Below the pieces are notes generated by a model, which was not told the DNA's origin, did no database searches, and saw nothing but the letters and a program-made list of their open reading frames with translations. The translations under genes were made by a program, and so were the position numbers. DNA of 64,000 nucleotides from Candidatus Altimarinota bacterium. Its GTDB lineage: Bacteria; Patescibacteriota; Gracilibacteria; BD1-5; UBA6164. Below are positions 10,787-37,864 of this stretch, piece by piece. The stretch covers positions 1,335 through 65,334 of the forward strand of contig JALSMB010000008.1 of the NCBI GenBank assembly GCA_026988025.1, in the 5' to 3' direction. Every line of letters begins with the position of its first letter. Positions within the stretch are counted from its first letter, which is position 1.

Positions 10787-10981
10787 ATGAAAAAAAAGTT
10801 TGAAATAAATATAGATATTTATTCTGAAGATATTATAAATCAAACAATTTGAGATTTTGAAGAAATATCTGAAATAAAATATACAGATAATAATTTAGAA
10901 ATACATTGAAGTTCTGAATCAGAAATTAATGAAATTTTTAATGAGTTTATGAATTATGTAATTTGATTAATTAACGAATAA
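10787..10981 (+). CDS. Small HxsD-like / hypothetical protein (64 aa)
   Basis: MKKKFEINIDIYSEDIINQTIGDFEEISEIKY...EINEIFNEFMNYVIGLINE. Same beta-then-helix layout as the preceding gene, and context only. Confidence 0.35.
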
Positions 10982-12469: not shown

Positions 12470-12485
12470 TTTTTAATTTAATTAT

Positions 12486-13013: not shown

Positions 13014-13035
13014 TTATATTTTATAAGTTGTAATT

Positions 13036-16723: not shown

Positions 16724-17217
16724 AAACTAATAAAAATGAATTATTAATTTTAAATAATTTTATTAATACTTTAAATGTTAATAAAATTTTAAATTATTTT
16801 TTTGAGAAAAAATTAGTGAATAAAAATACAGAGAAATATTCTTGTATGACTTATATTTTAAATAAAGAAGATTTATCTTTTTATTGAAATTTAATAGATA
16901 TAAGTAAAATATTGGATATTTTAAATTATAATTACTGAAAAAAATTTATTTTTTCATGAATATCTGAATATATTGAGATGAATAAATGAGATTTTTTACT
17001 TGAACATACTGATTGATTTCATGATTTTCAAGCAGTTTTATATTTATCTAATATAAATGAATTAGATTGATGAGAATTTATTATTGATAATTCATTATAC
17101 AATTTATTAGTGTGAGATATTGTAGTATTTAAATGAAAAAGGAGTCATTCAGTAAATTTAATAAAATGATGAAATAAAAGAATATCTATAAGTTTTTGAT
17201 TTAATAAAATAAACTAA
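16714..17217 (+). CDS. 2OG-Fe(II) oxygenase (prolyl-4-hydroxylase-like)
   Basis: LLEHTDGFHDFQAVLYLSN...GGEFII...GDIVVFKGKRSHSV...RISISF, giving an HxD...H...R facial-triad layout. Confidence 0.65.
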
Positions 17218-17222: not shown

Positions 17223-18374
17223 ATGAATAATATATGTTATACAATTAAATTGCATGAGTTATGTAATTATTGATGTTTATTTTGTTTCCAAAAACATGAA
17301 AATAGAGCTAATGCTGAAATAAAAGATAGGTTAGTTGTTTTTAATCTTATACTTAACGCTTATAAAAAATGATATAAATCTATAGAATTTACTTGAGGAG
17401 AACCTTTATTATCTAAAAATATATTTATATATCTAAAGTTTTCTAAAAAAATTGGTTTTAAGAATATTTTAATTAAAACTAATTGATATTTATTTTGAGA
17501 CTTAAATTTTGTTAATAATTGTATTTTATCTTGAATGACATCTTGCCATATTTCTATACATCATTATATATCAAAGAAACATGATTTTATTGTTTCTAAG
17601 GAATGAGCATTCTTTGAAACATTGAAATGAATTAGATATTTAAAAACTAAAAGATTACATTTATGATTACAAATAGTATTAAATAAAAATAATTATAAAG
17701 ATATAAAAGATATTATATTGTTTTTCTTAAATGAATGAATATTAGATTTTGTTATATTATTTCAAGAAATTGAATGAGAAGTTTATAATAATTTGAATGA
17801 TTTATTAATTTCTTATAATGAGGTTATCCCTTATTTATTAGATACTTTATCTTTATTTAATGGGATTAGCTGAAAGTATATAAAAATATTAAATTTTCCT
17901 TATTGTTTATTTCCATTAATCTATCACAAATATATAATTTCAGAAATCAATTTAACTGTCAATATCGAAGAGTGAGATATTAAATATATAAATAGAAAAA
18001 GAAATAGTAATTTAGCTTTAAATAAATGTAATAAATGTGATTTTTTTAAAAAATGTTCTTTAGTGGATATTAATTATTTAAATTTTTACTGAGAAGAAGA
18101 ATTTTGAAATAAAATATTATCTTCTAATTATAAAAATGAATTTAATATAATAGATATTTACATTAAATCTATAGTTAATTGAATATTTTATTCTAATATT
18201 AATGATTATATAGATTACGTTATATCTAAATTTTCATTTAGTGAATTTTATTTATATTTTCTTATTACTGATCAAAATAATACTTTATTTGAAGTTTTTA
18301 AGGATAACATAATTTTTGATGTTACTAGTTCAATTAATAAATTACATAACATTGGTATTATAAAATTAATATAA
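17223..18374 (+). CDS. Radical SAM protein (HxsC-like architecture)
   Basis: KLHELCNYGCLFCF, FTGGEPLL and a C-terminal CNKCDFFKKC (CxxCx5C). Frame verified open codon by codon. Confidence 0.8.
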
Positions 18375-18380
18375 GTTACA

Positions 18381-19025
18381 ATGAATACTTTTGATATTAA
18401 TAGATTTAATAATGAATTTGTTTTAAATAATAATAGTGAAAATATTGTTAAGGTCTTATATTGGTCTAAAACAAAATATAATAATGAATTTGTTATTAAT
18501 AAGATTAGACCATTTTTAAATAATACTAATCTTTTATTATTTAAAAAGATTATAAAAATAATATGATTTAAAAAAATACATATTTGATTTGATTTATCTA
18601 GAAAAGTAGTAAAATTTTATATATGAATATATGATCTTTGAATTAAAGAATCTTTTAAATTAATTAATGATATTAGGTTAGTTTTATGAATAAATGAAGT
18701 TTATGAAATTGAAAAAAATTTTTTAAAATTTGATTGTTTATGATTTGATGTATTATGTAATAATATTGAGCTTAAGGTATATGAAATAGTTAAAGATAAA
18801 TTTATGTATGATGAAATCGAATTATTAAATATAGATGAAATAGATATAAAGGAAATTTGATTTTTAAAAAGTTTTTCATGAAGAAAAAAAATTTTTTTCA
18901 GATTTAATAAATTAATAGATATATCTATTTTTAATAATATATTTTCTATTTCGGAAGATAATATTAATAAAAAAGTAAAATATTATTGTGTAGAAAATAA
19001 TAAAAAAGAAATATATTTTATTTAG
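18381..19025 (+). CDS. Hypothetical protein
   Basis: 214-codon ORF under code 25, tightly packed in the cluster. Recurrent (V/L)K(F/V)Y strands, but no confident family. Confidence 0.45.
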
Positions 19026-19037
19026 TATAATTTTTAT

Positions 19038-19690
19038 ATGAAAAAACTTTCTTACTGGATAAATCCTAAGTATTTATATCCAGGAAATATTATAAAATAT
19101 AGAAAAGAATTTTATGCAAAAGAATTAGTTAAAATAATTAAATTAGATAATTTTTTTAATGACTATATTATAAATAGAATAATAACTGAATTAAAACAAA
19201 AAAAAGCAAAATTTGAGTTTAATGATTCATACGAAAATTGAGTTGTAGATGTAGATTTTTTTCTTATAAATCAGTTTTTTTAGAAGAATTTAAAATTTTT
19301 TTATGAAGTAATACCTTTCTAAAATTTATTTCATTATTTTTTTGAAGAGATGTAAGATACGTTAATAATAGAGATTTAATTAATAAATATTCAAAATGAT
19401 GAATTCTAATTCAAACATTAAATAATAACAATCATATAAAATGGCATGATGACATAGATGATCAATGAATGTATATATTATATTTAAATGAAAATTATAA
19501 TAAAAAAATGTGAGGATTCTTAGAACTTTGATATAAAAATGGAGATGATTATATATGTTATGATAGAATCTCACCAGAATTAAATACTTTAGTTCTATTT
19601 ATGCCAAAGAAAGATTTATATCACCAGGTATCTAATATTTCTTATTGATTTGAGAGAAAAAATATTGTTGAACATTTATATTTTAAATAA
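19038..19690 (+). pseudogene. 2OG-Fe(II) oxygenase interrupted by a frameshift at a poly-T tract
   Basis: Frame 0 runs 19038 to TAG 19279-19281. The frame-2 continuation is open from 19223 to TAA 19688-19690 and carries HIKWHDDID, GGFLELG, LVLFMP..LYHQV and RKNIVEHLYF. T8 (19255-19262) and T7 (19275-19281) runs lie in the overlap. Confidence 0.6.
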
Positions 19691-19695
19691 TACTT

Positions 19696-20322
19696 ATGTT
19701 AAGTAATAATTATAAATACATATGTAATTTATATTGATGAAATTGATTTTCTAATTTACCAAATAGTATAAATACTTTTGAAAGGGTAATATATATTTTT
19801 GAAAAAATAAGTTGTTATAACGATTTTGAACATTTCCGTAGGAATTTTCCACCTGAATGGATTTTTATTCCATCAATAAGATTGAAAAGAAAAGATTTAT
19901 GGGTATCTTTTTTTAAGTATATATATATATATCATAAAAAAAATGACATAAATTTTTTAATAAGATTAAAAGAAAAAGGTATTTTTTGATCAGAAGGATT
20001 TACTGAATATATGGAAAGTTTGTATTATAATATTTTAAAATGATGATTAGATTATGATGAAGATTCTGATCTTACAATTACTTTTTCTAAATATACTACT
20101 AAATATATAATAAAGAACTATTGTACATTTAAAAAAGTAGATTTATTTAATAAAAAAATAAATATTCATCCTGTTGAGATAAGATGAGTAATAAATAAAG
20201 TATTGTTTTATAGAGCAACAATAGAGAATAATTTTGCAGATAAAATGTTTGATGATTATCCTGAATGAAAAAATTCAAAAAGGTTAGCGAAAGATTTTTT
20301 AAAATATTACTATAAAAAATAA
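19696..20322 (+). CDS. Hypothetical protein
   Basis: 208-codon ORF under code 25. No recognisable motif. Confidence 0.45.
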
Positions 20323-20323
20323 T

Positions 20324-21121
20324 ATGAATAAAGATATTTTATATAATTTAAAAAATATTGTCTCAAATGAATATCTTAATATTGATGTTTTAGGTTTTAT
20401 TTCAGATAATTTTAATAGTAGATTTCCTATACAGTATTATGTAATGGATAATTTTATTAATAAAGATTTGTATAAATCATTTGAAAATGAAATGTTAAAG
20501 AATATAGATTTTGATATTATCGATAAAAGAACAAATTCATTTATTAGTAATAAAAGTATATTATTGAATAATAAATCTTTTCTAAAAATTTATAATTTTT
20601 TTATATCTAAAGATTTTGAAATATTTCTTTCTATAATATTTAAAAGACATTTAAAAAGGTATAAAAAATTAGATTCTAAAAGAATTGAAGAATTAACTAA
20701 TATTAAGAATTCTTGAGTGGTTCAAATTTATGAGAAATGAGATTTTATGGATTGGCATACAGATATATCAAAAGATTTAAATAGGGATGAGTGTATATTA
20801 AAATGATGATATGAAGAATGGGATAAATGTATTGTAACTGAATTTGATGAAGTTGGAGCTTTTATTTACTATATATATAATTCTAATGATTTATGGAATT
20901 ATAATAATTGATGAAACTTAGAGTTATGAAAAATTTTAAATTGAGATATAAATGTATATAATAAAATTAAACCATTAAGAAATAGATTGGTTTTTATAAA
21001 ATCATCTAATGCTTCTTATCATAGAGTTAGTAAATTATTAAAAGAATGAGATTATAGAATTACTATACAAGATCTATTATTTGATAAATATTCAGAAATA
21101 TGAAATGAAATTCTACCTTAG
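20324..21121 (+). CDS. 2OG-Fe(II) oxygenase (P4H-like)
   Basis: GDFMDWHTDISK, GGNLELG, NRLVFIKSSNASYHRVS and RITIQ. Confidence 0.65.
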
Positions 21122-22827
21122 ATATTTATATAACAGAAATATGTAATTTAAATTGTGAATACTGTTATATTGATATTAAAAAGAAAGAATATAATTGATT
21201 TAATTATGTTGAATTTATTGATAGAATTAATTTACTACAATATAATACTATAAGATTTTTATGATGAGAGCCATTGTTAAAATGGAATGATCTGAAGAAT
21301 GTAATAAGAAATGTAAAGAAAATTAATGATAAAATTCAATTTATAATCATTACAAATTGAATTTTGTTGGATAATGAAAAATTAATTTTTTTAAGTAAAA
21401 ATAATGTTAGTATAGCTATATCTTTGCATTTTAATGTTATAAAGGAATTTAAAAATAAGGAGTTTTTAAAATTATTATATAAATATAATAATATTATATG
21501 ATTTATAGTTTTATTTAATTATAAAAAAGAATATTTATGAACAAATATAATGTTTTTTCTTGCAAATATATGATTTTTAAATTTTTCATTATCTCCAATT
21601 ACAACTGATAATTGGGATGATACTTTTTTATTAAGTATTGAATTAGAAAAAATATTTAATTTTTTATTATTAAACAAAAATATAAATATAGCAGAATCAG
21701 ATTGGAATTTTATAAAAAATCTTCATACTGATGATTTTTGTAGTAGGAAACAAGTAGATAAAGAATGAACATATAGACCTTGTAATAGATTTAATGATGA
21801 TTTTTTTAATAAAAATACTAATATTAAAGTAATAAAAGATTCATTTAATAAAATTAATAGTTGTAGTACTTGTAATGTAAGATGGTTTTGTGTATGTCCT
21901 TATTGATGGTATTATGATAATTTTTGAAATTCATTAGTTTATGATAAAAATAAAATAAAAAACTTCCATAATCTTAATAAAATTTTAATTGATTTTAATA
22001 AAAATGTAGCAAAACTGAGAAATAAAAAAAATTTTTTAATTGATGATATAGGTGAAATAAGATTTAATTTAACTAATCAATGTAATTTGAGATGTAATTA
22101 TTGTTATGTGCAATTTGATAATGATAAATTAGACTTAAATATATGAAAAAATATAATAAATTTCCTTTTAGAGCAAGAATGATTAAATAAAACTATTTCA
22201 TTTTTTTGATGAGAGCCTTTATTAGAATTTAAATTATTAGAAGATTTAACAAATTACGCAATTGAAAAATCAGTTTGATTAAATAAAATTGTTAACTTTA
22301 AAATTGCTACAAATTTATTACTTTTAGATAAATATATTTTAGATTTTTTTATAAAAAATAATTTTAAAATTCATATTTCGCTTAATTGAGATAAACAAAT
22401 AAATAATTCAAGTAGAGATAATAGTAGTGAACTTTTATTAAAAAAAATAGAATTATTAAATAAATGAAATATTAATTTTGATAATATAACTATATTAAAA
22501 TTAATATTTCCATATAATATTAATTTTTTAAATAAAAATTTAAAGTATATCTATGGTTTATGATTTAATAATATAAGTTTTGAATTATATTATTGAAAAA
22601 AATATACTCGGTCTAAAAAAGATATTTTATTGTTAGGTAAATCATTTTATTATCTCAAAAAATATTGAATATTAAATAAATTCAATATTTTAAACTGAAA
22701 GGATAATAATTATTTAGATATATCAGTTGATGGTAAGATAAATGATAATTCATTAGAATTTTTTAATTGAAGTATTGATTTTTCAATTAAAAAAATATTT
22801 AATAAAATTTTAACTAAAACAATGTAG
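21100..22827 (+). CDS. Didomain radical SAM protein (rSAM/SPASM fused to a second rSAM)
   Basis: Single frame checked codon by codon. Domain 1 has ITEICNLNCEYCY, FLGGEPLL and the SPASM-like CSTCNVRWFCVCPYG. Domain 2 has LTNQCNLRCNYCY and FFGGEPLL. Confidence 0.8.
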
Positions 22828-22828
22828 T

Positions 22829-24082
22829 ATGTGAAAAATTTTTTATTTTAAAGATAGGATAATTTTTAAAGATAATTTATTATGATTTGAAAAAGTACTT
22901 TTAGATTCAAAATATAATGATTATTGTATATATTTTGATTTTTATGATATTAAATTATCTTTAATAAAATTAAAATATATTATATTGAAAAATATTAATT
23001 TTATTGATTTTAATAATTTATATTTTTATAATTCTAATGATTTTATTAATCTATTACTAGATAAACCTATATATTTACCAAATAATATAAATTTATTTAT
23101 TAATGAAAAATGTTTTATTTGATGTAATTATTGTGATAATAATAATGATTGTTTCGAAAAATTATCATTATGAGACATAAAAATATTTCTTTGAAAATAT
23201 AATTTGTGAGATAATATTAATTATAATATCATATGACAATGAGATCCATTATTTCATTCAGATTTATTTAATATATTGGAATATATTAAATCTATTTGAT
23301 GACATATTACTTTTTTTACTTGATGAAAATCATTATTATATTGTAAAGATATAAATAAACTAAATAGTTTTGTAGATGAATTTAAAATAAATCTTTCTTC
23401 TTCAAGTTATCAGATATATAATAAAACTCATAGCAATAAGATAAATAAGGTTGAATTTGATAAGTTAATTAATAAAATTAAAATTATTGCTAAAAAATCT
23501 ACATTTATAACAATATTAACTAGTAAAAATATATCTGATTTATATAAATTTTATATGTTAGCAGTTAATTTAAATTGTTATTGATTAGAAATAAAAAAAA
23601 ATTTATTTTATAACAAAAATGATATTCTAAATAATTTAACAATAAAGAATAATATTATTAAATTATTAAAAATATTTTCAAAAAATAAATATATTAATTT
23701 CAGTTCAAATATAAATTGAAATTTTATACAATATAATAATATATCTAATTTTATTGATAGGTCTTCATTATTATTAGATAGATATATTAATAATAATTTT
23801 GATGATATAGATATTGATGATATAAATAAATTAGATAAATGTTTTCAATTTGGTAATTCAATTGATATTATTGAAAAATGAGTTGTATCTGTTTGTTGTC
23901 ATTATGATATTTGAAATATTTCTCAAATTGATTATGATGGTTTATATTATAATAATATATTATTTAAAGAAAAATATTTAAATTATAAAATTAAAACACC
24001 AAAATCTTGTGAAAAATGTCCAATGCCGATTGATAGGTACAAAAATTATTTAAAATATAATTTTGTGTCTTCATTAGTTTAG
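22829..24082 (+). CDS. Radical SAM protein
   Basis: INEKCFIGCNYC (CxxxCxxC), IIGQGDPLF and C-terminal Cys pairs (VCCHYD, CEKCP). Confidence 0.7.
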
Positions 24083-24098
24083 AAATTAATATTTTATA

Positions 24099-25328
24099 AT
24101 GCTTAAAAAATATATATTTGATACACATAGAATATGTTCTCCAAAAGAAACAGTTACACATGTTTTAAAAATAATAAAAAACACTTGAATTATAAATGAT
24201 ACTAATTTAAAAATATATTCAATAGGAGAATTGGATATTTTTAATGAATATGTATATTCAATATCCTCAAATATATGAAAAAGAAATAATTGGTGAAAAT
24301 GACTTACTAAGTATCAAGCATTAGCAAGTGCATTAATGGAATTTTCAGAAAGATATTCATGGTATAAAATAATTGAAAAAATTAATAATCAGAAAAAAAA
24401 TAAATTGATTAATATTAATGATAGAGAAGTATTAGATATTGATAAATTAATTTTAACAAATTCAGATAAAATAAAAAAAATAGAAAATATTAATTATTTT
24501 GATAATATATATATGAATTATATTGAGTGAATATCATTAATCACGAATAAAAAAATATTAATTCCTTGGTATGAACCTGAATTTATGACTACTAATTCTT
24601 TATGAGCCTGAAATAATAAAGAAGAAGCAACTATACATGCCATTTATGAAACAATTGAAAGACATAATCATAATGTTATGATGGCTAATCATGTTTTACC
24701 TTTATTAATAAATGATAATACCATAACTAATAGTAATATTATAAAATTGATAAATAAAATAAAATTATTAGGTTTTGAAGTTTATTTATTAGATTGTTCG
24801 TTTAATTTTAATATTAATACAATATGAGCAATAGTATATAATAAAAATTTTCAGTTCGTTGAACATTATTCGATGAATTTTCATTTATGAACACATAGTG
24901 ATAAAGATATTGCTATTATAAGAGCTTTAACAGAAGTTATTCAAAATAGGGCAACTAATTTTGATAATAATAAAAGTTCTATTTATAAAGAAGCAGATAA
25001 TATGATTTTAGATGAAAATAATATATCTAAAATAGTTAAATTTTATTTAGAAAATATTAGAAATAATAATTTAGAAATTATTAATTATAAAAATATTATA
25101 AATTATAATTTTAGTGATTTATGATTAGAGCTTGAATATATATTAAATGAATTAAAAAATAAATGACATGATGTTTTTTTAATAGATATTACTAATGATA
25201 AATTAAAAATACCTGCTGTTAGAGTTGTTATTCCATGATTACAACCAATGTTGTTTGAATTATTTGATGATTTTAATAATAAGAATATTAGACTATCAGA
25301 ATATATTGATAATGGATTTATAACATAA
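24099..25328 (+). CDS. YcaO-domain protein (ATP-dependent peptide backbone-modifying enzyme)
   Basis: WGKGLTKYQALASALMEFSERYSW and TTNSLGAGNNKEEATIHAIYETIERH are the canonical YcaO blocks. Confidence 0.85.
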
Positions 25329-25338
25329 ATAATTTATA

Positions 25339-26496
25339 ATGAGTATTTTTTTAAATGAAGTTGATAGTTATATATATATAAAATATTGTGAAAATTATTT
25401 ATATAATATATCTAGATTAAATAATATTTTTTTAACTGCTCCTTTTTTTTACTTTAGAAATGATTTTTTATTAAAGTTATACATAAATAAAAGTATAAAG
25501 ATAAGTAGTTTTATAGAAAAAAATAATAAAAAATATATGTTTTTAATTGATCAGGGTTGATTTGTTAAAAATCCAGAATTTTTAAACAATTATGAATTAT
25601 TTAAAATTAAAAAAATATTAAAATCCAATCCTTTAGATTTTTATGCATTATCTGCATATATAATATATCACTATAATAATGTTGATTTAAATTTATGAGA
25701 ATATTTTGATAGATTTTTTGAAATAGAACCTAATAATCCTCATATGTTATTAAGGTTATCTAGATATCAAGCTAGTACATTATATAAGAAGTATAATTAT
25801 GATAAAAAATATTTAATTTTATGAAAAAACAATATCTTAAAATTATTACGAGAATTTAAAAAATATAATAAGAGTGATGAAATTCCAACATTTTCATATT
25901 CGTGGTTATGATTCATAGAAGAAGAATTATGAAATTATAATGAAGCAATAAGATTATATGATTATACAATAAAATTAAATAAATGAATATCAATAGATGT
26001 TCCAGAACCATATGTTTGGAAATGATTTACTTTAAATAAATTGTTAAAATATACGGAAAGTTTAGATTTATTATTAAAATTAGAACAAGATGATAAAATA
26101 AATGAATATAATGATAAAAGAGATTTTAGATTATATAAGGTTATTTCAGATAATTATTATAATTTATGAGAATATAAATTATTTTATAAGAATTTAAAAA
26201 TAACCATAGAAAAATTTTTAGAAGTATTTAGTTTTCATTTTAATAACTGAAATTATATTTTAGATAAAAATAATTTTAAATTAATATTTAATAATAGATT
26301 AGATATTAATTCTTATAATTCTTTTTTAGATTATAATAAAATGTATATAAAAAGTAATATAGATTATATTATATTTGGAATATCTTTTTTATATAATAAA
26401 AAATTGATCTGAAAAAAAATTACATTTAATGATAGTAGAGGGATAGAAAGACTTTGTTTTAATTATTTAGAGTTAATTTATGAGTGAAAAATATAA
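25339..26496 (+). CDS. TPR-like helical repeat protein (hypothetical)
   Basis: 385 codons with a repetitive helix-pair pattern (e.g. GNYNEAIRLYDYTIKLN, GEYKLFYKNLKITIE). Overlaps the next gene by 17 nt. Confidence 0.45.
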
Positions 26497-27367
26497 TATA
26501 TTAATAGAATATATTCTTTACCTAAGAGATAGAAATCCAGATAAAGATTGGGGACATATATGGTGATGGACTACTATATATAGTTATTGTAGATGGAATA
26601 AAAATGAAGAAAGATTAATAGAAGAGTGAAAAAAATTATTGAAAGATAAAACAGAAGATATTTTTATTAAAATGATTCAAGAATGGTATGATTGAAAGTT
26701 TGAAAGAAAATATCTAAAAAAATATGAAGAAAAATTTAGTGATAATTATTTATATAATTTTATATATTGAATTTCTTTTGATAAAGCTACAGATAAAATT
26801 TATTATTTTAGGTTTTCAGAAAAATTAGATTTAATTTGACTTAAATATTTATTAAAATCTTATAAACAAAATTCAAATTATTTATTTACAAATATAGCAC
26901 TTTGAAGTTACTATCAACATAATCAGAAGTTTGACTTGGCTTATAAATTTTACTTAAATGATTTAAAATTAGATAAAGATAATCCTTGGGTTTTAGCTAA
27001 GTTAGCTATCCTATATTCTTCTATGTGATATTGAGAAAAATGATTATTAAAGGCTGAAGAAACTATGAGAAAGGTAATTACGTTACTTCCAGATATTCCT
27101 TGGGCTAATGCTTGGTATTGAGAAACACTTAATATGATTTGAAAATATGTAGAAGCTTTAAAATATTTTGAAAAATATGAAAAATTGACTCAGTGAAAAC
27201 ATAGAACTTTTGAACCTTTTATGAGAAAAACTGAATCTTATATTTGATTATGAGATTTTAAAGAAGCAAGATTTGAATTAGATAAAGAAAGTAAATATTA
27301 CTTTTGAGAATGATATAGATTTGTGTATAATGATTTAGATAAAAAATTAGAAAAATTATGATATTAA
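26480..27367 (+). CDS. TPR-like helical repeat protein (hypothetical)
   Basis: QKFDLAYKFYLNDLKLDKDNPWVLAKLAILY, GKYVEALKYFEKYEKL and GDFKEARFELDKE have a TPR-type A/Y/L periodicity. Confidence 0.5.
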
Positions 27368-27381
27368 TAAAATAAATTATT

Positions 27382-29292
27382 ATGCCTGATATAGCTCTAT
27401 GGTCAGCTTGTGATCATAAATGTACAATGTGTTCAAATTCAGTTGATTATATAGAAACAATAAGTGATTATTCATTTGAGGCTATCAAAAATAGAATTGA
27501 TGGCTTTGTTTGAGGTGATGATAGAAATTTTCATAGATTTCCAGATTTAAAAGATGATTGGACTATTACAGGTTGAGAACCAACATTAAATCCAGATTAT
27601 TACAAAATTTTAAGATATTTAAGGGAAAAATTTCCAAACTCTAAATTAGTTCAACTTACTCATTGAGATAGATTTTCTGATATTGAATTTACAAAAGATA
27701 TAGTGAGTTTATCTAATTATCATCTAGTTTTTCCTATACATTGATATAATAAAAAATCTCATGAAGCCATTGTAAGAAAGGAGTGAAGTTGGGAGGCTTT
27801 AATTAAATGAATATATAATGTTTTAAAATATAAAAGATTTGAGGATCAAACATTTGAAATAAGAATAATTATACAGTGACAGAATTATAAACATCTTGAT
27901 AAAATTTACGAATTTATATATAAATATTTTCCACAAGTTGATAGTATTGTTTCAATAATGATGGAATATGAATGACAGGCAATTGATAATAAAAACTTAA
28001 CTTCTGTTAATTATAATTATGTTTATGAGATAAATGAAAAAATATTTTTAAAGTATTGAAAAATATTTGGTGTAAATAAATTTAAATTATATCATTTTCC
28101 TTTATGTACATTAAAAAATCCAGAACTTTGGAAATATATGTGGAGAACATTACCTAGCCATGAAATTAATTTTGTATGAAAGTGTAGTACGTGTAAATTA
28201 TCTAAATATTGTATGTGAATTCATGAAACTTATTGTAAATTTAACTGAGAGGATGAAATAAAACCTTTTAAAATGAAAGATTTAGGTAATATAAAAATTA
28301 TTGAGAATTATGATAATTTTAGGTTCAACCCAATAAAAGAAGTGGAAATAAAAAATAATTGATGGAAAAGATGAAAAAAAACAGTAATTTTTACTTGATA
28401 TTGATGTAATAATATATGTAGGTTTTGTATTGATTTAAATAAAAGAGATATAGAACATACAACAAAACAAATATTAAAAGATATACTTATAGCAAAACAA
28501 AATTGAACTACTATTCTTGAAATAATATGAGGGGAAGTAACTATTAGAAAAGATTTTTTTATAATAATGCAATTTATAAAGTCTATGAATTTTAATCATG
28601 TTTATATGGTTACTAATTGAAATAAATTAGCTGATTATAATTTCGCAGAAAAATTTTATAATATGTGAGTTTTAGATTCAATAGTTTTTTCTATTCATTG
28701 AAGCTATTTAGAATTACATGATTTATTAGTTGCTACTCCTAAATCTTTTGAAAAATTATTAAAGTGAATAAAAAATTGGCAAGATTTATGATTTAATAAA
28801 AGAAAAATAGGTACTAATACTGCTATTGAAAAATGAAATTATAAAGATTTATTAAATATATGAAAATTAGTTAAAAAATTATGATGTTTAGGGAGTTCAG
28901 AGTTTATTTTTGCTGATCCAAATGTTTGATGAGTTCATGATAATTTTGAAGAATTAATGCCAAAAATTTTAGAATCAGCTCCTTATATGAGAGAATTACT
29001 TGATTGGTGAAATAGTAATGATATGATATATAGAGTAAGATATGTTCCTCTTTGTTATTTTGAAGATTATTTAGATAATAATATTTCAGAACTAAAAGAA
29101 ATTGAGATTTATTCTAATGTTACTCATAGTGCACCAGATTTTAATAATAGTGATGTGGTTGAGTGAAGAAAAAATTCATGAAGAGTTAAAACAAAAAAAT
29201 GTACAGATTGTAAGTTATTTGATAAATGTGAATGAATCTGGAAAACATATTATGAAAAACTTTGAGATGAAGAATTATTACCAATAAAATAA
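27382..29292 (+). CDS. Didomain radical SAM protein (two HxsC-like modules fused)
   Basis: Frame verified across the junction. Module 1 has WSACDHKCTMCSNS, ITGGEPTL and CSTCKLSKYCMG. Module 2 has TGYGCNNICRFCID, IIGGEVTI and CTDCKLFDKCEG. Confidence 0.8.
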
Positions 29293-29297
29293 TAATT

Positions 29298-29828
29298 ATG
29301 TTAGATGAGAAAGATTATAAATATAAAAAATTAATTCATTTTTTAAATTTATCAAAAGTAAACTTAATATGGTATATAAAAAATTCAAATAATATTATTA
29401 TATATAAAGATTATATTTATTTAAATGGTATTTATTTTTATTTGGATGACTTATACATAGAATGAAATAATGTTGATATATGGAATTACAAATGAAAAAC
29501 ATATTTTACTTATAATGCTGCTATTAGAGAAATAAATAAAATAGGAAAAAGACTTCTTTGAAAAAATGATTGGAAGAATTTAATTGATTTTTTACCAGGT
29601 AATATAGAGAATAAGATTATTTTTTTAAAGGATATTTTATGATTGTCTTTTTTTTGATTTAAATGCCGGGATAATTGATTTTATTGTAATTTTGGAAATG
29701 ATTGATGATATTGGTCTTTAGATTGTACTGAAACTCATGCTTATAATTTACATATAAGTAAAAATATTATAAATTTTAATGATTTAGAATTTAAAGATAT
29801 CTGATTTTTGGTTCGTTGTATAAAATAA
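29298..29828 (+). CDS. FISUMP-domain protein (Fibrobacter succinogenes major paralogous domain-like)
   Basis: YFTYNAAIREINKIGKRLLGKNDWKNLIDFL ... GGYWSLDCTETHAYNLHI ... GFLVRCIK, including the characteristic VRC-x-K ending. Confidence 0.55.
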
Positions 29829-29842
29829 TTATTGTTATAAGT

Positions 29843-30682
29843 ATGAAAAAATATATAGATCATCTTGTTCCTATAAATAATGTATGTAACCAAGCATGCA
29901 ATTTTTGTAGTGCTGAGTATAGAATGAAAACAAATAAATCCATTCCTTTAAAAACTATATTTAAACAAATTTTAGAAAAAGATAATTATATACAAATTTC
30001 AGGTTGAGAGCCTCTTCTTAGTAAAGATTTATATAATATTTTATATTTTATAAAAAAGCAAAAATCTAGATGTTTTATAGAATTTCAAACTAATTGAGTT
30101 TTTTTATTACAAAATTCTAATTTAGATAAATTACAAAAATTTTGAATAAATTTATATAATATCAATTATCCATGCCATATTGAAAAAATAAATGATGAGA
30201 TAGTTAGGTGAAAATGAAGTTTTCATCCTAGAGAAAAATCTATGAGGGAAATTATTAAAAGATGATTAAATTTAAGAATTAATATTATTGTAAATACTAT
30301 TAATTTTAAATATTTACCAAGTATGGTAGATTACATAAATAAAAATTTCAGTTGACTTGAAAGAATACAATTTAGTTTCACAAAAGCTATGTGAGCAGCA
30401 AATAAAAATGATGAAGTGGTGCCTAAATATGAAGATACTGAGGAATATTTTATAGATGCTCTGGCAAAATGTAAAAAATATAATATAATAGCAGATGTAG
30501 ACCATATTCCTATATGTTTCTTATGAAAATATTTTAAAAATCATGTAGATTATAGTAAATTAAAAAGATGAGAGAAGTGAGTTTTTTTAGTAGAAAAACA
30601 TTATGTAAAAAGATGTAACTTGTGTAATAAAAAGAATTTATGTACAGGTTTTAGAAAAGATTATTTAGAAATTTATAATTAA
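29843..30682 (+). CDS. Radical SAM protein (HxsC-like architecture)
   Basis: INNVCNQACNFCSAE, ISGGEPLL and a C-terminal CNLCNKKNLCTG. An alternative upstream ATG lies at 29816. Confidence 0.75.
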
Positions 30683-30684
30683 AA

Positions 30685-30852
30685 ATGATTAATATAATAA
30701 AAAAAATAGTTTTGATAATTAAACAATATTTTTTTGTACCAATATTGATTTTGATATTATACCCAATATATATATTATTATTTTTTTTATTTAGAAAATA
30801 TTTTATATCTACAATAATTAAAGTATCATGAAATATAAAAAGAATGTATTAA
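30685..30852 (+). CDS. Small hydrophobic protein (55 aa)
   Basis: MINIIKKIVLIIKQYFFVPILILILYPIYILLFFLFRKYF. Overlaps the carbamoyltransferase start. Confidence 0.35.
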
Positions 30853-32549
30853 AAAAATATTATTTATGATTATCTTGTTTTTTTCATGATTCTTCAGTTT
30901 CATTTATTGATGAATCATGAAAAATCTTATATTCATCATTAGAAGAAAGATTTTCAAAAATAAAACACGATAGTTCATTTCCATATAAATCTTTAGAATA
31001 TTGATTTATATATCTTAATATTAATTTAAATGATATTAATGAAGTTTTTTTTTATGAAAAACCATTGTTAAGATTTTTTTTAGATTTAAAATCAATTTCT
31101 ATTTTTTACCCATTTAGTTTTTATTTCTTTTTTAATTTTTTAAGAAATTTTTTTAAAAATTATAATGAATTAAATTCATATTTTTGTAAATATAAATGAG
31201 AAATTAACTATATTGATCATCATATTTCTCATGCTAGTCTAAGTTATTATTTGTCAAATTTTTCTAACTCTTGAATTTTAGTAGTTGATTGAGTTTGAGA
31301 TAATTCAACAATTTCTTTATATGAATGAAATAAAAAAGAAATAACTTTATTAAATGAAGTATATTTCCCAAATTCAATTTGATTATTATATTCACTTTTT
31401 ACTATTTTTTGTTGATTTGAAGCTAATGAATGAGAATATAAAATGATGTGATTAGCTTCTTATTGAAAACCTATATATGTTGATAAAATCTATCTTTTAA
31501 TAAAGAATAATAATATAAATGAATTTGAATTAGATATAAGTTATTTTAATTTTTCATCATTTAAAAACCCATTTAAAAAGAAATTTATAAAATTATTTTG
31601 AATATGAAGGAAAAAAGGCTCTAATATTGATATATATTATAAGGATATAGCATCTAGTATCCAAAAAGTATTAGAAGATATAATTATTAAATATTTAATA
31701 ATTATTAAATATAAATATGATTTTAATAATATGTGTTTTTGATGATGAGTTTTTTTAAATTGTAAATTAAATAAAGAGATTTATGATAAAAATATTTTTA
31801 ATAATATTTTTATTCCACCTAACCCTTGAGATTGATGAAATAGTTTAGGAGCAGTTTTATATTGATTTAACAGTATAAATAATACAAATAAAAAGATATC
31901 GTATAGAAAAATAGATTATATATTTTGATGATATAATATTGATATTGAAGTTAATATTGATAGTAAAATAAGTAATTATAAATATGATAAATTTGATATA
32001 AATGATGATGAAGAGTATTTTTCAATAATTTTTAATTATTTAAAAAATGAAAAAATTGTTTCTTTAATACAATGAAGTGCTGAATTTTGACCAAGAGCTT
32101 TATGAAATAGAAGTATAATATCTTCACCATTTAATAGTGAGATGAAAGATAAATTAAATAAGATTAAATGAAGGGAATTCTTTAGACCTTTTGCTCCTGT
32201 TGTTTTAGATGAAGATTTTAATAATAATTTTATTTGAAATATAGATTCTCCATATATGATGTATTTAGATGAGTTAAAAAATAGTAAATTATCTGCTATT
32301 ACTCATGTTGATAATACAGCTAGAACACAGGTACTTAAAAGTAATAATAATAATAATAATTTTCTATATTTATTATTAAAATATTATAAAAAATATACAT
32401 GATTTTGAGTATTGCTTAATACCTCATTTAACATGTGATGAGAGGTAATGGTAAATAATATTGATGATGCATTATTTACGTTTAAAAGAACTAATATTTC
32501 TTTATTAGTTATAAATAAAGGTAATAAAATATATATATTATATAAATAA
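30828..32549 (+). CDS. Carbamoyltransferase (NodU/CmcH family)
   Basis: LGLSCFFHDSSVSFIDESGKILYSSLEERFSKIKHD, DHHISHASLSYY, VVDGVGDNST, EYKMMGLASYG, AEFGPRALGNRSII, KGREFFRPFAPVV, THVDNTARTQV and NTSFNMGGEVMV. Confidence 0.9.
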
Positions 32550-32562
32550 TTAATTTATTATT

Positions 32563-33591
32563 ATGAAAAATAAACTTTTTAAATTATTATTAATGGTTTT
32601 ATGAATATTGTTTGCTTTATTTATCTTTGAATTTTGATTAAGAGTTTTTTTTGTTAACTGAATTTTTAATGAAAATGAAATTATAAATGATTCAAATAAA
32701 AATATGAAACATAATTTCGAAAAATGATCAGCAGAAGATAGTTGAAAATATTATGAATATTTTTGAGAAGAAATATATTTTTGGTATGAAGATAAATATA
32801 AATATCTTCATACCAAATCAGATAAAAAAAATATAGCTATTATTTGAGATTCTGTTGCTCAATGAGATACTGGATGAATGTCCAATTTTAAATTCTCAAA
32901 AATTATTAATGATGAAAATTGAAAATTGAATATTTTAAATTATTCTAGATGATGACATAATATTTCACAAGAGTATGTTCAATATGAACAATTTATTAAA
33001 GAAAATGATAATATAGATACAGTTATATATATATATTATAATAATGATTTATATTTTTCTAATATGATTAATGGATCAATATATACTTCTCCAATAATAA
33101 TTGATAATAGTTCATGAGACTTAGTTATAGAATTAATAGGTAATGAAAAAATAGATGCTTTTTTATCACATTTTTATATATATAAATATATTGCTAAAAA
33201 ATATTCATTAATTTTTAAAAAATTTGTTAATATTAAAGATTATAGGAAAATATATTATAATAATACTTATGGATATGAGGATTATTTAATAAATAGATTT
33301 TTAATGTATGTTAAGGACATAAATAATAGTTGTAAAGATAGTTGAAAAAAGTTTATTATATTAATTTCACCTACTCCAAAATTAATTAATGTAAATAATA
33401 ATTTTGATAAATATTTTATGCAAGATAATAGAGTTTATAAAAAGTTAAAAGCAGCTTGAATTAATGTATATAATTTATATGATTATGATGTACATAAAAA
33501 AGACTATTTTATTGATAATTGTTGTCATTTAAATAAGAAATGACATATTTATTATTCTAATTTCATAAAAAACATAGTATGAAACCAATAA
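32563..33591 (+). CDS. SGNH/GDSL-type hydrolase or acyltransferase, membrane-anchored
   Basis: N-terminal TM helix, block I IAIIGDSVAQGDTG and block V IDNCCHLNKKGH (DxxH). Confidence 0.6.
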
Positions 33592-33728
33592 TTAAAGAAC
33601 TACTTTTATTTATAAAAGAAAAAAAATTAACATTTTTATATCCTTTTTTATTAATATTATTAATTTTAATAAGCATAGTTATAATTTGAGAAAATATTGC
33701 TCCTTCAATAGTACTTTATAGTTTTTAG
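33579..33728 (+). CDS. DUF5989-like small membrane protein
   Basis: MKPIIKELLLFIKEKKLTFLYPFLLILLILISIVIIGENIAPSIVLYSF has the pattern typical of the about 50-aa proteins that accompany carbamoyltransferase genes. Confidence 0.55.
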
Positions 33729-33736
33729 AAAGAATA

Positions 33737-34417
33737 ATGAATAAAAATATAACTATTATAATTCCAATATATAATGAAAAAGATAATATTAGAGTATTAT
33801 TAGAAGAAATAATAAAAATGTATAAATGAATTAATATCTTAGTTGTAAATGATTGATCAATAGATAATGTAGAATTACTTTTAAAAAAAATTAATTATAA
33901 AAGATTTAATTATATTAATAATGTGCTTAATAAGTGATTAACATATTCTATTATAAAATGAATTAAAAATGTAAATACAAATTATTTTATTGTTATGGAT
34001 TGAGATTTACAACATCCTGTTAAATATATTAATAATTTTATTTTATTATTAGAAAAATGATATGATGTTGTAATTTGAAATAGAAAAAATATTTTTTTTA
34101 AAAATAATTATTATAGAAATTTATTTTCTAAATTATGAAATATTTTAGTTAATTTTAAATTATGAAATAATAAAATAAAAGACCCATTAACTTGATTTTT
34201 TTGAGGTAATACAAAGTTTTTTATAAATAATATTAGTATAAATAAAAAAAGATTTATTAATAAATGATATAAATTTTTATTTGAATTTTTGAAGTGTATT
34301 GATATAAAAAAAATAAAAATATATAATTTTTATTTTGAATTTTTAAATAGAAGATTTTGAAAATCAAAATTATGAATAAGGGAATATTTGAGTTTTATTT
34401 TATGATTAATTAAATAA
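33737..34417 (+). CDS. Family 2 glycosyltransferase (polyprenyl-phosphate sugar synthase-like)
   Basis: ITIIIPIYNEKDNI, LVVNDGSIDN and FIVMDGDLQHP (DxD). Confidence 0.8.
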
Positions 34418-34420
34418 AAA

Positions 34421-36061
34421 ATGTTAGATTTTTTATTAAAGTATATAAATAATGATTTGTTTATATGGAGTATAACCTGATATTGAATATTGATTTTATT
34501 TATATGACTTTGATTTTGATTTCTATTTATAAGAAAAGATTTATTTTTTTTTCTAAAAAAATATATATCTAAAAAAGATTTGGTATTAATATTTTTTTTA
34601 TTTGTATTTTCTTTAATTATAAGAGTCTATTTTTTGGATAATTCTCTTATAACAATGAATGATGAGTTTATGTATACTCAGCATGCAAGAGAGTTAATGG
34701 AAACTTGAAAAATATTATCACCTATTAGATCAGTTTGATGGAGTTTTTTGTTAGTATTTCCTTTTAGTATATTTTGAGTTTCAAGTTATATATGATTTTA
34801 TTTTTCAATATTTTTATGAAGTTTAACAGTAGTAATATTATATTTATTATTAAAAATAATTTTTGATAATAAAATTATTTCTTTTTATCCAGCATTATTA
34901 TTATCTATTTTGCCATTTCATGTATTTTGGTCTACTAAAATGGAAACAAATCTGTCATCACTTTTATTTATAGTAATAACAATATTATTTTTCATAATAT
35001 ATAGTCAAACTAAAAATATAAAAATATTTTATTTTACTATATTATTAACATTATTTTCTACAACTTTTAGATGAGAAAATATACCAGTATTAATATTATA
35101 TTTATTTTTATTAACAATAGTAAATTATAAACAAATATATTTAAATAAAAAGAATCTTTTTATATCTTTATTAACTTTTTTTATTTGAATAATAACTGTT
35201 TTACCTAATTATGTAAATCAATATAATTTTTCTACTTCTAAGGATTGGACATATTGAGAATGAAGTAATTTTTGATTAAATAATATTTTTTCTAATATAC
35301 ATTATTTTCTAAATTGATTTTTAAATAATAACTTATATTTTTATTATAATTATATAGTTATATTTTGAGTATTGCTTTTATTTTATAATTTATATTTTTG
35401 AGTTTTTAGAAAAATAAAGAAAGAAGTTTTTATTTTAATAACTCCTTTTGTTTTATTATTTTTTTTATATAATTTTATATGGTTAAAATATGTAGCACAA
35501 GAATCAAGATTATATATGGAAATTTATCCATTATATGGAATGTTTTTTTGATTTGCAGTATACAGTTTTATAACTTTTTTTAAAAATAATTTTATTAAAT
35601 ATTTAGTTACTTTTATTTTATTTCTACTTACTATTTGAAATTTATATAACACATATTGATATTCTAATAAATCAGATTATAAATATTTACAAACAATTGT
35701 TAGTAATACTTTTAATTATGATATTTATATAAAAAATAAAAAATGTATTTATATATTATATCAAAATACTTATTATACAGCATTTGTAGATATTCCATAT
35801 ACAAATATTTATGAGTTTTTATATAATAAAAAATTACAAAATGATATTTTAAATAAATTCAATTGTATAATATATATAAAAGATAAATTTGCTTTGGATG
35901 AATCTAGTTGAGAACATTTTTTTTGACCAGATTGAAATAAGTCAAATTTTTATTTTGATGAAGTAGAAAGTAATAATTTATTTAAATTTAGAGAAATAAA
36001 AATATATAAATATAATAATATTGAATATTGATTTTATAAATTAAGTAAAAATAATGACTAA
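34421..36061 (+). CDS. GT-C fold membrane glycosyltransferase (ArnT/PMT-like)
   Basis: More than 10 hydrophobic helices. The first loop RVYFLDNSLITMNDEFMYTQHAREL resembles GT-C acidic loop 1. Sits directly after the GT2 gene. Confidence 0.55.
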
Positions 36062-36587
36062 AAATAAAATAATAGAATTATTTGATAATGAAAAATATAA
36101 GGAGGTTTATAAATTAACTAATCCTTATAATAAAGATATTATTCTAGATTACGAGATATTATATTTTTTGAAATCAAAGTTAGTTTTAGATGATTTTAAG
36201 ATTAATAATAGTAATGAAATAAAAAAGATATTATTTTATTATTTTTATTTATTGTGAAAAATAAAATTTGAAAATAATTATAGTTTTTATTTTAAGAAGG
36301 AATTATTAAAACTTGATTTTAATAATTTAGAAAAGGATTTAAATTCATTAAAAGATTTCAAACAATATTTTGAATTGTGAAAAAATAAAGTATTTTTAAA
36401 TAAAATTATTGATAAAACTTTAAAAAATAATAATAAAATGGAATTTAGACAATGATCTAAAGAGGTTTATAATATTATTGATTTTTTTATAGAATTCACT
36501 AAAGAATGTTCTGAACTATATGCTTTTTCTTGAGAGCATTTTCCTTTATTTAAATGGCTTATTAATGAATTATCAGATGAAAAATAA
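36054..36587 (+). CDS. Hypothetical protein
   Basis: 177-codon ORF that overlaps both neighbours by 8-11 nt. Confidence 0.45.
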
Positions 36588-37845
36588 TATAGAAAGTAAA
36601 TTACAAAATAAATGAATAACAAAAGAGGATCTTGAAAAAAGAGATGAATTATTATCTTGAACTAAAGATAAAAAATCTCAAAATATTAGAAGTTGTTATG
36701 AAGTTATGGTACATAAATTATGCCAAGAAAAATGTTTTTTTTGTAGTCAGGATCATGCAAGTAGAATTACTGATGTTAAACCTGATGATTTAGATATTTA
36801 TAAAAGAATTTTGTTTTGAGTAAAAGAGTGATATTGAATGTTAGGTTTTACATGATGAGAACCTCTTATACATCAAAATATTATTAATTATATAAAATTT
36901 GCTTCTAAAGCATGATTTAAATTAGTTAGAATTCAAACTAATTGAGTTATGCTTTGAAATCCTTGATTTGCTAAAAAATGTGTTGATGCTTGAGCAACAC
37001 TTTTTAAGTTTTCTATACATCATTATAAATCAGAAATACACGATTATTTAGTATGACTACCATGAGCTTTAAAAAAAGTAGAATATTGAATAAAAGAATT
37101 AAGAAAACTTTGATGTAGAATGTGAATAAATATTGTACTTACAAAACAAAATTATAAAGATTTGCCTGAATTTTTATTACATTATTTAAATCTATGAATA
37201 TCTTCATTTGTAATTATTTTTCCACTTTACGAGAATAGTATGAAAGATGAAGCGGATGTAGTATGATTTAAATTTTCTGAATCTATTCCATATATAATAA
37301 AATCATTACATATATTTGATAAATTATGATTAAAAAGACCACTTGTTCTAAATTTACCAATGTGTTTACTACCTTGATATGAAAGTGCTATAATTCAGAC
37401 TTTTAATTGAACAGCAGTCTTAAATCTTGATTGATCAAAGACTAATATTGATGATAATAAGGCCTGATGAAAGAAGAGGGTAAAAATATGCTCTGATTGT
37501 GAGCATAATAAAATTTGTTTCGGTGTAGATGAAAAATACTTGGCTGTATTTTGAGAATGAGAATTTCAAGAAAAAAAGGAAAAATTAAATTTTAATTTTT
37601 CTTTAGAGGATTTAAAAATACAGAAGTATTTTTCTGATAATGAATTATGTTTAATTGAAATATTACAATATAAAAATAATTTAAAAATTAAAGATATAGC
37701 TGAATTAAAAGATAAATTTCAAATATGTAAAGATTGTGATAATATGGATAAAATTTGAGAAGTAGAAGAAAGTTTAGTAAAAAAATGAATTATTTTAGTG
37801 AAATGACAGTGATTAGAAAAGAAATATAGTTTAATTCCTAAATAA
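36577..37845 (+). CDS. Radical SAM protein (HxsC-like architecture) with a C-terminal extension
   Basis: VHKLCQEKCFFCSQDH, FTGGEPLI and CSDCEHNKICFG, followed by about 90 aa of helical tail containing ICKDCDN. Confidence 0.8.
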
Positions 37846-37864
37846 TATAATATTTTTTAGGAAT
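37834..37864. terminator. Hairpin between convergent genes (bidirectional terminator candidate)
   Basis: attcctaaa / tttaggaat 9-bp stem spanning both stop codons (37843-37845 on + and 37857-37859 on -). Confidence 0.45.

Follow-up and report, generated by a model that had tools for sequence, protein, structure and literature searches.

An HXS-like gene cluster with five HxsC-type radical SAM modules, two of them fused, in a Gracilibacteria genome

Background

Why would a small bacterial genome keep five related maturase modules in a single gene cluster, two of them in one polypeptide, and what would they modify? The question is raised by a stretch of 64,000 nucleotides from Candidatus Altimarinota bacterium (GenBank assembly GCA_026988025.1, contig JALSMB010000008.1, positions 1,335 to 65,334), hereafter the window. 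An earlier note, written from the sequence alone, described in it five radical S-adenosylmethionine (SAM) modules that resemble HxsC, a component of the HXS system. In the HXS system of E. coli, HxsB and HxsC are both needed to mature HxsA, HxsC binds HxsD, a change of +8 Da maps to one SHRSS motif, and the product is exported (PMC13128918). The system was shown to be antiphage in 2026: it defends by blocking DNA entry and its HxsA has a peptidoglycan-binding domain. Pseudomonadota account for 99.7% of HXS systems, and more than 99.8% of the systems consist of four genes (PMC13128918).

We consider it likely that the cluster of the window is an elaborated and chromosomally fixed variant of HXS maturation, in which a didomain HxsC-type protein, HxsB, and HxsD modify an HxsA-like protein. 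The HxsB and HxsD families are known, as are variant Hxs models; what is new is a set of HxsC-type modules and a precursor that fail curated membership and differ in domains, order, and number. Our literature searches returned no publication on multi-HxsC or fused systems, nor on radical SAM clusters of Gracilibacteria, and a search on two-radical-SAM-domain proteins gave nothing on this system.

An HxsD-HxsB-HxsA core

By the curated family cutoffs, the window encodes a true HxsD and a true HxsB, followed by an HxsA-like precursor with an (HGS)8 array, in the order D-B-A (Table 1; genes are named below by their first position). No HxsC lies between HxsB and HxsA, whereas the canonical order is D-B-C-A, and the first HxsC-like gene is found 4.2 kb downstream. 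The full order is HxsD, an open reading frame (ORF) of 64 aa, HxsB, and HxsA. The 64-aa ORF matches no family and is not HxsD-like by hhalign; its C-terminal motif NEFMNYxIGLIN is common to the window, to CP042461, and to GCA_028691535.1.

The precursor with HxS (His-Xaa-Ser) repeats on which the earlier note relied is present. It has 14 HxS triplets, and its (HGS)x8 array occupies positions 12897-12998. The leader matches HxsA3 (NF038309) and the repeat tail HxsA4 (NF038313), both under the curated cutoffs (65 and 55 bits, respectively). A search with a profile of the precursor recovered 384 clusters, none of which has an Hxs name; the few named ones are called "hypothetical protein". Two perfect tandem arrays occur in this part of the window, one of 9 bp x 9.1 (12917-12998) that encodes (HGS)n in the HxsA-like gene, and one of 30 bp x 5.7 (13101-13271) that encodes LAKNNIDTGS repeats in the next gene. 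Their perfect identity suggests recent slippage and a variable copy number. Relatives have 4-8 copies of the HGS unit.

A long basic leader followed by a Sec-type hydrophobic region with an AxA site would fit the N-terminus of the precursor better than a prepilin site. The leader motif KGF(I/L)x(D/E)E resembles such a site, with a Glu at +5, and is a weak lead. As a site for the A24-type prepilin peptidase it is not favoured: the residue at position -1, which is G in most relatives, is N, S, or D in L009, L007, and L014 (loci of the synteny comparison). The prepilin reading is also strained by a hydrophobic segment that starts ~15 residues later.

Precursor tails carry Trp and Cys (GGWC, HCSW, CCCCSNW). 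A Trp-Cys derived cross-link or quinone in the tail is speculative; the flavoenzyme 15053 has sub-cutoff matches to LodB, GoxB, and QhpG, the maturases that make cysteine tryptophylquinone.

Five homologous HxsC-type modules

The five modules, 17223, the two halves of 27382 (27382-N and 27382-C), 29843, and 36520, can be aligned end to end. All the motifs quoted in the earlier note were found at the ORFs it named once these were translated with genetic code 25: CNYGCLFC and CNKCDFFKKC in 17223, CDHKCTMCS and CSTCKLSKYC in 27382-N, CNNICRFC and CTDCKLFDKC in 27382-C, CNQACNFCS and CNLCNKKNLC in 29843, and CQEKCFFCS and CSDCEHNKIC in 36520 (36577 if an internal Met is used). The GGEP(L/T) motif, said to be common to all, is found in four of the modules; 27382-C reads IGGEVT, with the V kept across the family consensus.

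Pairwise blastp among the five modules gives E-values of 1e-9 to 1e-57 over 210-315 residues, at 23-36% identity. The alignment has 17 invariant columns, which comprise the CX3CX2C triad, GGE, T-x-G, P-x-C, the CX2CX5C triad, and a downstream Tyr; the P-x-C motif is an additional landmark that the note did not list. A hidden Markov model built from the five modules matched these five and no others in the window at E <= 1e-5. Four modules have HxsC (TIGR03977) as their best NCBIfam match; for 27382-C it is HxsC4 (NF038332). Scores against TIGR03977, which has a curated cutoff of 267.9 bits, are 143.6 bits (27382-N), 103.3 (29843), 95.8 (17223), 78.9 (36520), and 64.1 (27382-C), with 196.2 for the whole didomain. 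The match of 27382-C to NF038332 is full-length (positions 13-335 of 335), and its 105.7 bits are far under the cutoff of 500. The canonical HxsC proteins of Aeromonas, Klebsiella, and Mesorhizobium plasmids have the same CX3CX2C, GGEP, P-x-C, and CX2CX5C landmarks. The PF04055 score of 36520 is 60.5 bits, above the gathering score, and this family is also precomputed for homologs. The modules are thus homologous and HxsC-like, as had been proposed.

The same is suggested by a neighbour-joining tree of 62 modules (100 bootstraps; simple capped distances; some sequences carry W for G), in which all the HxsC-type modules and canonical HxsC are split from the HxsB and 21100 outgroups at a bootstrap of 93. 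The modules form one clade with canonical HxsC, although the order of branching inside it is poorly supported for four of them and 27382-N groups with canonical HxsC at 70; the earlier note had left to phylogeny whether they belong to unrelated radical SAM families.

The four conserved C-terminal cysteines of each module (P-x-C and CX2CX5C) probably hold an auxiliary Fe-S cluster. When the module profile was compared with the PDB, the best structural matches were twitch/SPASM enzymes, and the sequence match covers approximately positions 5-216 of 302. The region from P-x-C to CX2CX5C has no solved counterpart among these matches, and no HxsC-type structure is solved. The full seven-Cys SPASM motif is not present in the modules.

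The fusion proteins and the genetic code

The earlier note reported two continuous didomain fusions of HxsC type. Both ORFs, 21100-22827 (575 aa) and 27382-29292 (636 aa), indeed run without an in-frame TAA or TAG, but only 27382 joins two HxsC-type modules, one close to HxsC proper (N) and one HxsC4-like (C). The product of 21100 has an N-terminal radical SAM domain with SPASM-like Cys motifs and a C-terminal radical SAM core of the PapB/HxsB type, and is not HxsC-like. Polypeptides with two radical SAM domains are rare in general, as the note held, but not in the HxsC-like family. An exhaustive search with the didomain gave 195 cluster representatives at E <= 1e-30 and 7,998 at E <= 1e-3, a set of ~8,000 that may take in other radical SAM families. 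About one third of the top 150 representatives are 560-1400 aa long and have 2-4 matched stretches, so multi-module proteins appear to be typical of this family.

When the window is read with the standard bacterial code (table 11), both fusion ORFs break at many TGA codons, and one may ask whether the fusions are artefacts of assembly, sequencing, or UGA read-through. We regard this as hardly conceivable. The window is read with genetic code 25 (UGA as Gly), because TGA codons stand at invariant glycines of the Walker A motif of F1-beta (GgAgVGKT), because the Gly-rich ORF of ATP synthase c has 50 in-frame TGA codons, and because G and W interchange in the GGEP motif among homologs called in databases with TGA as Trp. 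Under table 11, 25 kb contain only 11 ORFs that reach 60 aa; with TAA and TAG as the sole stops, the ORFs of the + strand amount to 57 kb. All the ORFs of the window were re-called with code 25. The GC content is ~18-25%, the best database matches are Candidatus Gracilibacteria, and no tRNA genes were found in the window.

The 27382 didomain has ~30 full-length homologs of ~632 aa in independent assemblies, at 62-83% identity and 100% coverage, and the complete, NCBI-annotated genome CP042461 is among their sources. For 21100, we found ~60 homologs (29-56% identity, 97-100% coverage), several of them on the same contigs as 27382-type genes. In each family, the length and the junction are the same as in the window, which again argues against an artefact. 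In the two families, each half retains its radical SAM Cys triad at 94-100%. Both CX3CX2C triads are 100% conserved in the 21100 family, and the 27382 family also keeps the P-x-C and CX2CX5C cysteines of its two halves (94-100%). An independent fusion of N and C modules, P0033, lacks the W-for-G signature and for this reason probably comes from a standard-code organism. Judging by these homologs, both fusions are genuine and conserved.

The AlphaFold2 model of P0003, a homolog 75% identical to 27382, is confident and has two alpha/beta modules of radical SAM type, with a predicted local distance difference test (pLDDT) of 85 and a predicted template modelling score (pTM) of 0.74. The nearest solved folds are twitch/SPASM radical SAM proteins: BlsE (top), SuiB, SkfB, MoaA, and viperin.

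In public databases, most homologs of the cluster proteins have W at UGA positions (code 4), e.g., "TGWEPT" for TGGEPT, a mistranslation in which UGA was read as Trp in place of Gly. Their Trp content is inflated to 5-7%, and alignments and models built from them will suffer.

In relatives, PEP-utilizer and PPDK_N domains follow the didomain or C-type module or are fused to it (L001, positions 11902-13640; P0041; P0305). The association hints at phosphorylation of a Ser-rich substrate in some versions of the system.

Origin of the modules

The earlier note saw in the modules a burst of paralogues that would modify the repeated HxS motifs iteratively or site by site. Under this reading, one HxsC gene expanded recently and locally, to give one enzyme per repeat or per site. 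Five homologous modules do lie in one cluster with one repeat-bearing precursor, and the 17223-type and 36520-type modules are sisters (bootstrap 97). However, identity among the modules is only 23-36%, whereas their own orthologs in other Gracilibacteria genomes are 47-82% identical, and the modules fall in separate clades. The 29843-type modules have their own clade (bootstrap 100). The clade of didomain-N modules (100) is joined by canonical HxsC at 70, and 27382-N is the module closest to canonical HxsC. The didomain-C modules also form a clade (100), inside one of 99 with stand-alone orthologs, some of them in metagenome-assembled genomes (MAGs) of Woesearchaeota and Saccharibacteria. By sequence comparison, the modules belong to four or five old orthogroups common to other Gracilibacteria. 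Low identity and shared orthogroups point to duplications that are old and shared, not to a local expansion.

The number of repeats (4-8) also does not follow the number of modules (2-5) in the loci seen, and the HGS units are identical, so that a site-specific enzyme for each unit would be hard to rationalise. The idea of a burst is therefore very unlikely in our view, and appears to be largely refuted by the orthology data.

The two halves of the didomain bear on the same point. In three loci that are read with the standard code (L014, L015, L016), N-type and C-type modules are separate and adjacent genes, and both halves have stand-alone orthologs in loci of Woesearchaeota and Saccharibacteria. 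Since the halves are separate neighbours in other lineages, 27382 is best described, from gene order, as a Rosetta-stone fusion. L014 has HxsD, HxsB, and HxsA in the same order as the window, and five consecutive HxsC-type genes, one of them an HxsC-HemN fusion. This locus (243-10145) comes from a MAG with 26% GC and the standard code, and its Methanosarcinales label looks doubtful for GC and gene content.

Genomic context and candidate substrates

The cluster extends from 10155 to 37845 on one strand, with a divergent A24-like gene and an aKG-HExxH hydroxylase at its end, and includes ten radical SAM domains within 27 kb. It adjoins the ATP synthase operon, a position common to three genomes, and its surroundings are housekeeping genes (ATP synthase, sigma-70, DnaG), not a defence island. 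We compared about ten loci for synteny. CP042461 (L001) and GCA_028691535.1 (L010/L017) have in common with the window a frame of ATP synthase beta and epsilon, HxsD, the 64-aa ORF, HxsB, and the HxsA-like gene, followed by variable enzymes, the 177-aa protein, the didomain, the A24-like gene, and the HExxH hydroxylase. Parts of this frame also occur in L002, L006, L007, L008, L009, and L013. L010/L017 is syntenic almost gene for gene and has all five HxsC-type modules, at 47-76% identity. L006 has the local order of the window (didomain, 29843-type, 177-aa, 36520-type) at 75-82% identity. The A24-like gene closes the cluster in every locus seen, and comes directly after it in L001, L002, L009, and L010. 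Between the window and CP042461, the 27382 didomain is 75% identical, to be compared with 77% for sigma-70 and 73% for ATP synthase beta. Because the didomain is as conserved as these two proteins and the position is kept in three genomes, the locus looks vertically inherited and of important function, rather than like a mobile defence island, although it may still serve in defence.

Do all these enzymes work on the same protein? The accessory paralogues and tailoring enzymes come and go as blocks among genomes. Sub-module (a) has the 17223-type gene, two conserved proteins, a 2-oxoglutarate (2OG) oxygenase, the 21100 didomain, and a radical SAM gene; sub-module (b) has a 200-aa protein, YcaO, and the 29843-type gene; and sub-module (c) has the 177-aa protein and the 36520-type gene. 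The window could therefore hold a supercluster of independent peptide-modification pathways, in which the HxsA-like protein is the substrate of the didomain, HxsB, and HxsD alone and the three sub-modules serve other substrates. In line with this, the sub-modules are present or absent independently of each other, L001 and L002 have the core with different accessory enzymes, and several conserved small ORFs have no assigned role. However, when all window ORFs of at least 30 aa were searched with the precursor profile, a single HxsA-type gene was recovered, and the gaps of the window yielded no further small ORF that has repeats or is rich in Cys. The sub-modules are also invariably located between HxsA and the A24-like gene, closely spaced and all on one strand. 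We see separate pathways as a serious but rather unlikely alternative.

Another possibility is that the modules act on small molecules or glycans, in an envelope-glycan or cofactor pathway that merely lies beside HxsD, HxsB, and HxsA. The nearest solved structures (BlsE, viperin, MoaA, GDGT-MAS) are of small-molecule enzymes, genes for a carbamoyltransferase, GT2, and PMT_2 lie inside the cluster, and relatives carry PEP-utilizer/PPDK_N genes or fusions. Yet the structural matches are limited to the generic radical SAM core, and the best family matches are HxsC and HxsC4. The modules are also found alongside HxsD, HxsB, and HxsA in distant lineages, and the glycosylation block (30828-36061) is missing from the syntenic relatives examined: in L006 and L010, nothing corresponds to it between the 29843-type and 36520-type genes. 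With the lowest GC content of the region, at 15-18%, this block probably represents inserted DNA that has no link to Hxs maturation. A small-molecule pathway seems improbable to us.

Several observations weigh against the reading of the locus as a variant of HXS maturation. All five modules score under the curated HxsC and HxsC4 cutoffs and lack the N-terminal domain of ~100 aa of canonical HxsC: the CX3CX2C triad is at residues 100-117 in canonical proteins, at 10-18 in the modules of the window, and at residue 68 in the 36520 ORF (441 aa). The HxsA-like protein has no canonical peptidoglycan-binding domain by Pfam, and its repeats are C-terminal; in canonical HxsA, the repeats are followed by a C-terminal domain, whereas the protein of the window ends at them. 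There is one HxsD for five HxsC-type modules. A partner resembling HxsD for each HxsC paralogue was considered and rejected, with hhalign probabilities under 2% for the 177-aa, 200-aa, 214-aa, 208-aa, and 64-aa proteins against HxsD and each other; the Pfam set we used leaves the true HxsD itself undetected. Finally, the numbers of modules and repeats do not vary together in the few loci seen, and the deep nodes of the tree are unresolved (bootstrap under 30, with simple-distance neighbour-joining and some W-for-G sequences).

We still favour the variant of HXS maturation, in which the HxsC-type modules are inferred to mature the repeat protein. The didomain would provide the core HxsC function: a heterodimer whose two active sites are joined covalently, in the way that FbiC combines CofG and CofH. 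Together with HxsB and HxsD, it would introduce radical-mediated modifications on the HxsA-like protein in the cytoplasm, and the modified protein would then be exported by a Sec-type route. The three other HxsC paralogues may add further, lineage-variable modifications, and the same could be true of the HemN-like protein, the extra radical SAM protein, YcaO, the 2OG oxygenases, the flavoenzyme, and the HExxH hydroxylase as tailoring enzymes. The mature product may act in phage defence, as in E. coli, or have another envelope function.

A bolder proposal, which we find doubtful though worth stating, is that the Hxs machinery of Gracilibacteria, and more widely of bacteria of the candidate phyla radiation (CPR) and DPANN archaea, is a vertically inherited core pathway and not a sporadic, mobile module of phage defence. 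It would make a heavily radical-modified, His-rich, secreted or surface protein on which episymbiosis depends, the HxsC-HxsC4 didomain would be an obligate enzyme with two active sites, and the proteobacterial four-gene HXS would be a streamlined offshoot. If true, the secreted or surface protein could have roles such as attachment, metal capture, or an envelope function.

Comparison with known systems

The window resembles the HXS antiphage system of E. coli, Klebsiella, and other Proteobacteria in its true HxsD and HxsB, in a precursor that has tandem His-Xaa-Ser units and, at its N-terminus, a segment of export type, and in the landmarks of HxsC. It differs in gene order and content: HXS is D-B-C-A with one HxsC, whereas the window is D-B-A with five HxsC-type modules, two of them fused. 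The modules are sub-cutoff and without the ~100-aa N-terminal domain of HxsC, and the precursor, unlike HxsA, has a C-terminal (HGS)n and no peptidoglycan-binding domain. The window also adds many tailoring enzymes, and its cluster is chromosomal, beside the ATP synthase operon, as opposed to the plasmids and islands of HXS. The HxsC4 (NF038332), HxsA3 (NF038309), and HxsA4 (NF038313) models of NCBIfam suggest that curators had already recognised variant Hxs families; they match the C half of the didomain, the leader, and the repeat tail of the precursor, respectively, but the scores in the window are far under the cutoffs (500, 65, and 55 bits).

FO synthase (FbiC) is a fusion of CofG and CofH, which are separate adjacent genes elsewhere, and each of its domains has its own cluster (PMC11917521). 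The 27382 protein is likewise one polypeptide with two radical SAM domains and a Rosetta-stone pattern. However, FbiC makes a small-molecule cofactor and belongs to an unrelated family, whereas the halves of 27382 are mutual paralogues with a presumed protein substrate. As in the twitch/SPASM enzymes (BlsE, SkfB, SuiB, MoaA), the Cys-rich C-terminal extension of the modules could hold an auxiliary cluster; unlike in these enzymes, the sequence match of the modules stops at the radical SAM core.

These data point to a large, hidden, and more elaborate branch of HXS outside Proteobacteria, in CPR bacteria and DPANN-type archaea. In this branch, HxsC has diversified into several orthogroups, often fused into proteins of 2-4 modules, alongside other radical SAM enzymes, YcaO, oxygenases, and a hydroxylase. 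A genome of ~1.3 Mb, judged by CP042461, spends ~30 kb and ten radical SAM domains on the cluster. Such an investment in a small genome, with a didomain conserved like sigma-70, argues for an important function. Since the fusion fixes the partner enzymes at 1:1, it offers a natural handle for biochemistry and structure, and the module types make a comparative series for working out the function of HxsC-type enzymes.

Gene inventory of the cluster

The features of the cluster are given in Table 1. Among the genes outside the core and the modules, the 13036 product has no family match, and the HemN-like protein 13741 is 33% identical to the domain that is fused to an HxsC-like module in L014. 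Orthologs of 29226 are found in L010 and L007, beside YcaO and the 29843-type gene. The 177-aa protein is directly upstream of the didomain in most relatives. Orthologs of the 36520-type module in L010 and L006 are 419-427 aa long, at 73-82% identity, and those of the HExxH hydroxylase in L001, L009, and L010 are 44-68% identical.

Table 1. Features of the HXS-like cluster, with positions in the window and the evidence for each
Feature	Position	Strand	Evidence
HxsD	10155..10730	+	TIGR03976 59 bits (cutoff 50); 60% identical ortholog in CP042461
Conserved 64-aa ORF between HxsD and HxsB	10787..10981	+	Same size and position in L001, L017
HxsB radical SAM/SPASM maturase	10988..12469	+	TIGR03978 501.1 bits (cutoff 370), full-length
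HxsA-like precursor	12486..13013	+	Conserved basic leader, hydrophobic segment with AxA, HASGIVNGHYS, (HGS)x8, GGWC tail
232-aa protein, N-terminal hydrophobic segment, 30-bp x 5.7 repeat	13036..13734	+	34% ortholog by HxsA in L017
HemN-like radical SAM	13741..15066	+	HemN/HemW/ChuW-type matches, all sub-cutoff
FAD-dependent halogenase/LodB/QhpG-like flavoenzyme	15053..16723	+	CmlS 137, LodB 74, QhpG 54 bits, sub-cutoff
2OG-Fe(II) oxygenase (weak)	16714..17217	+	PF13640 26.5 bits (cutoff 27)
HxsC-like module 1 (17223-type)	17223..18374	+	C-terminal extension of ~85 aa; 47% ortholog in L010
Conserved 214-aa protein	18381..19025	+	38% ortholog at the same position in L010; no family match
Conserved 208-aa protein	19696..20322	+	52% ortholog in L010
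2OG-Fe(II) oxygenase	20324..21121	+	PF13640 34.4 bits; 60% ortholog in L010
Didomain radical SAM, not HxsC-like	21100..22827	+	56% ortholog in L010/L017
Additional radical SAM	22829..24082	+	PF04055 35 bits; 63% ortholog in L010
YcaO-domain protein	24099..25328	+	TIGR00702 145 bits (cutoff 75.65); 57% ortholog in L010
Two TPR-like proteins	25339-26496, 26480-27367	+	Weak TPR matches; orthologs in L010, L001, L007
HxsC-like module 2 (didomain N half)	27382..28296	+	TIGR03977 143.6 bits
HxsC-like module 3 (didomain C half), HxsC4-like, GGEV	28354..29292	+	NF038332 105.7 bits
Conserved ~180-200 aa protein	29226..29828	+	Start probably Met near 29298
HxsC-like module 4 (29843-type)	29843..30682	+	Orthologs at 64-75% in L006, L007, L010
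Carbamoyltransferase, 342-aa GDS-motif protein, GT2, PMT_2 membrane glycosyltransferase	30828..36061	+	Pfam
Conserved 177-aa protein	36054..36587	+	Orthologs at 38-75% in eight loci; not HxsD-like
HxsC-like module 5 (36520-type)	36520..37845	+	Start probably 36565 or 36577; C-terminal extension of ~85 aa
Membrane protein, N-terminal peptidase A24 (prepilin peptidase)	37857..39197	-	PF01478 34.6 bits
aKG-HExxH-type peptide beta-hydroxylase	39249..40385	+	TIGR04267 60.2 bits (cutoff 40)

Two short ORFs lie on the + strand between the 18381 and 19696 genes, at 19038-19283 (81 aa) and 19469-19690 (73 aa). The first has a weak match to Ofd1_CTDD (the C-terminal region of 2OG oxygenases), and the second, judged only by eye, is similar to the end of such an oxygenase. 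They have no counterpart between the orthologous genes of L010, and may be remnants of a decayed oxygenase. Upstream of the cluster, the ATP synthase c-subunit ORF (2970-4484, + strand, 504 aa) has six GxGxGxG helix-1 motifs at a spacing of ~75 aa. Its product apparently consists of six fused c-subunit hairpins and an acidic tail, which is unusual for a bacterial F-type operon.

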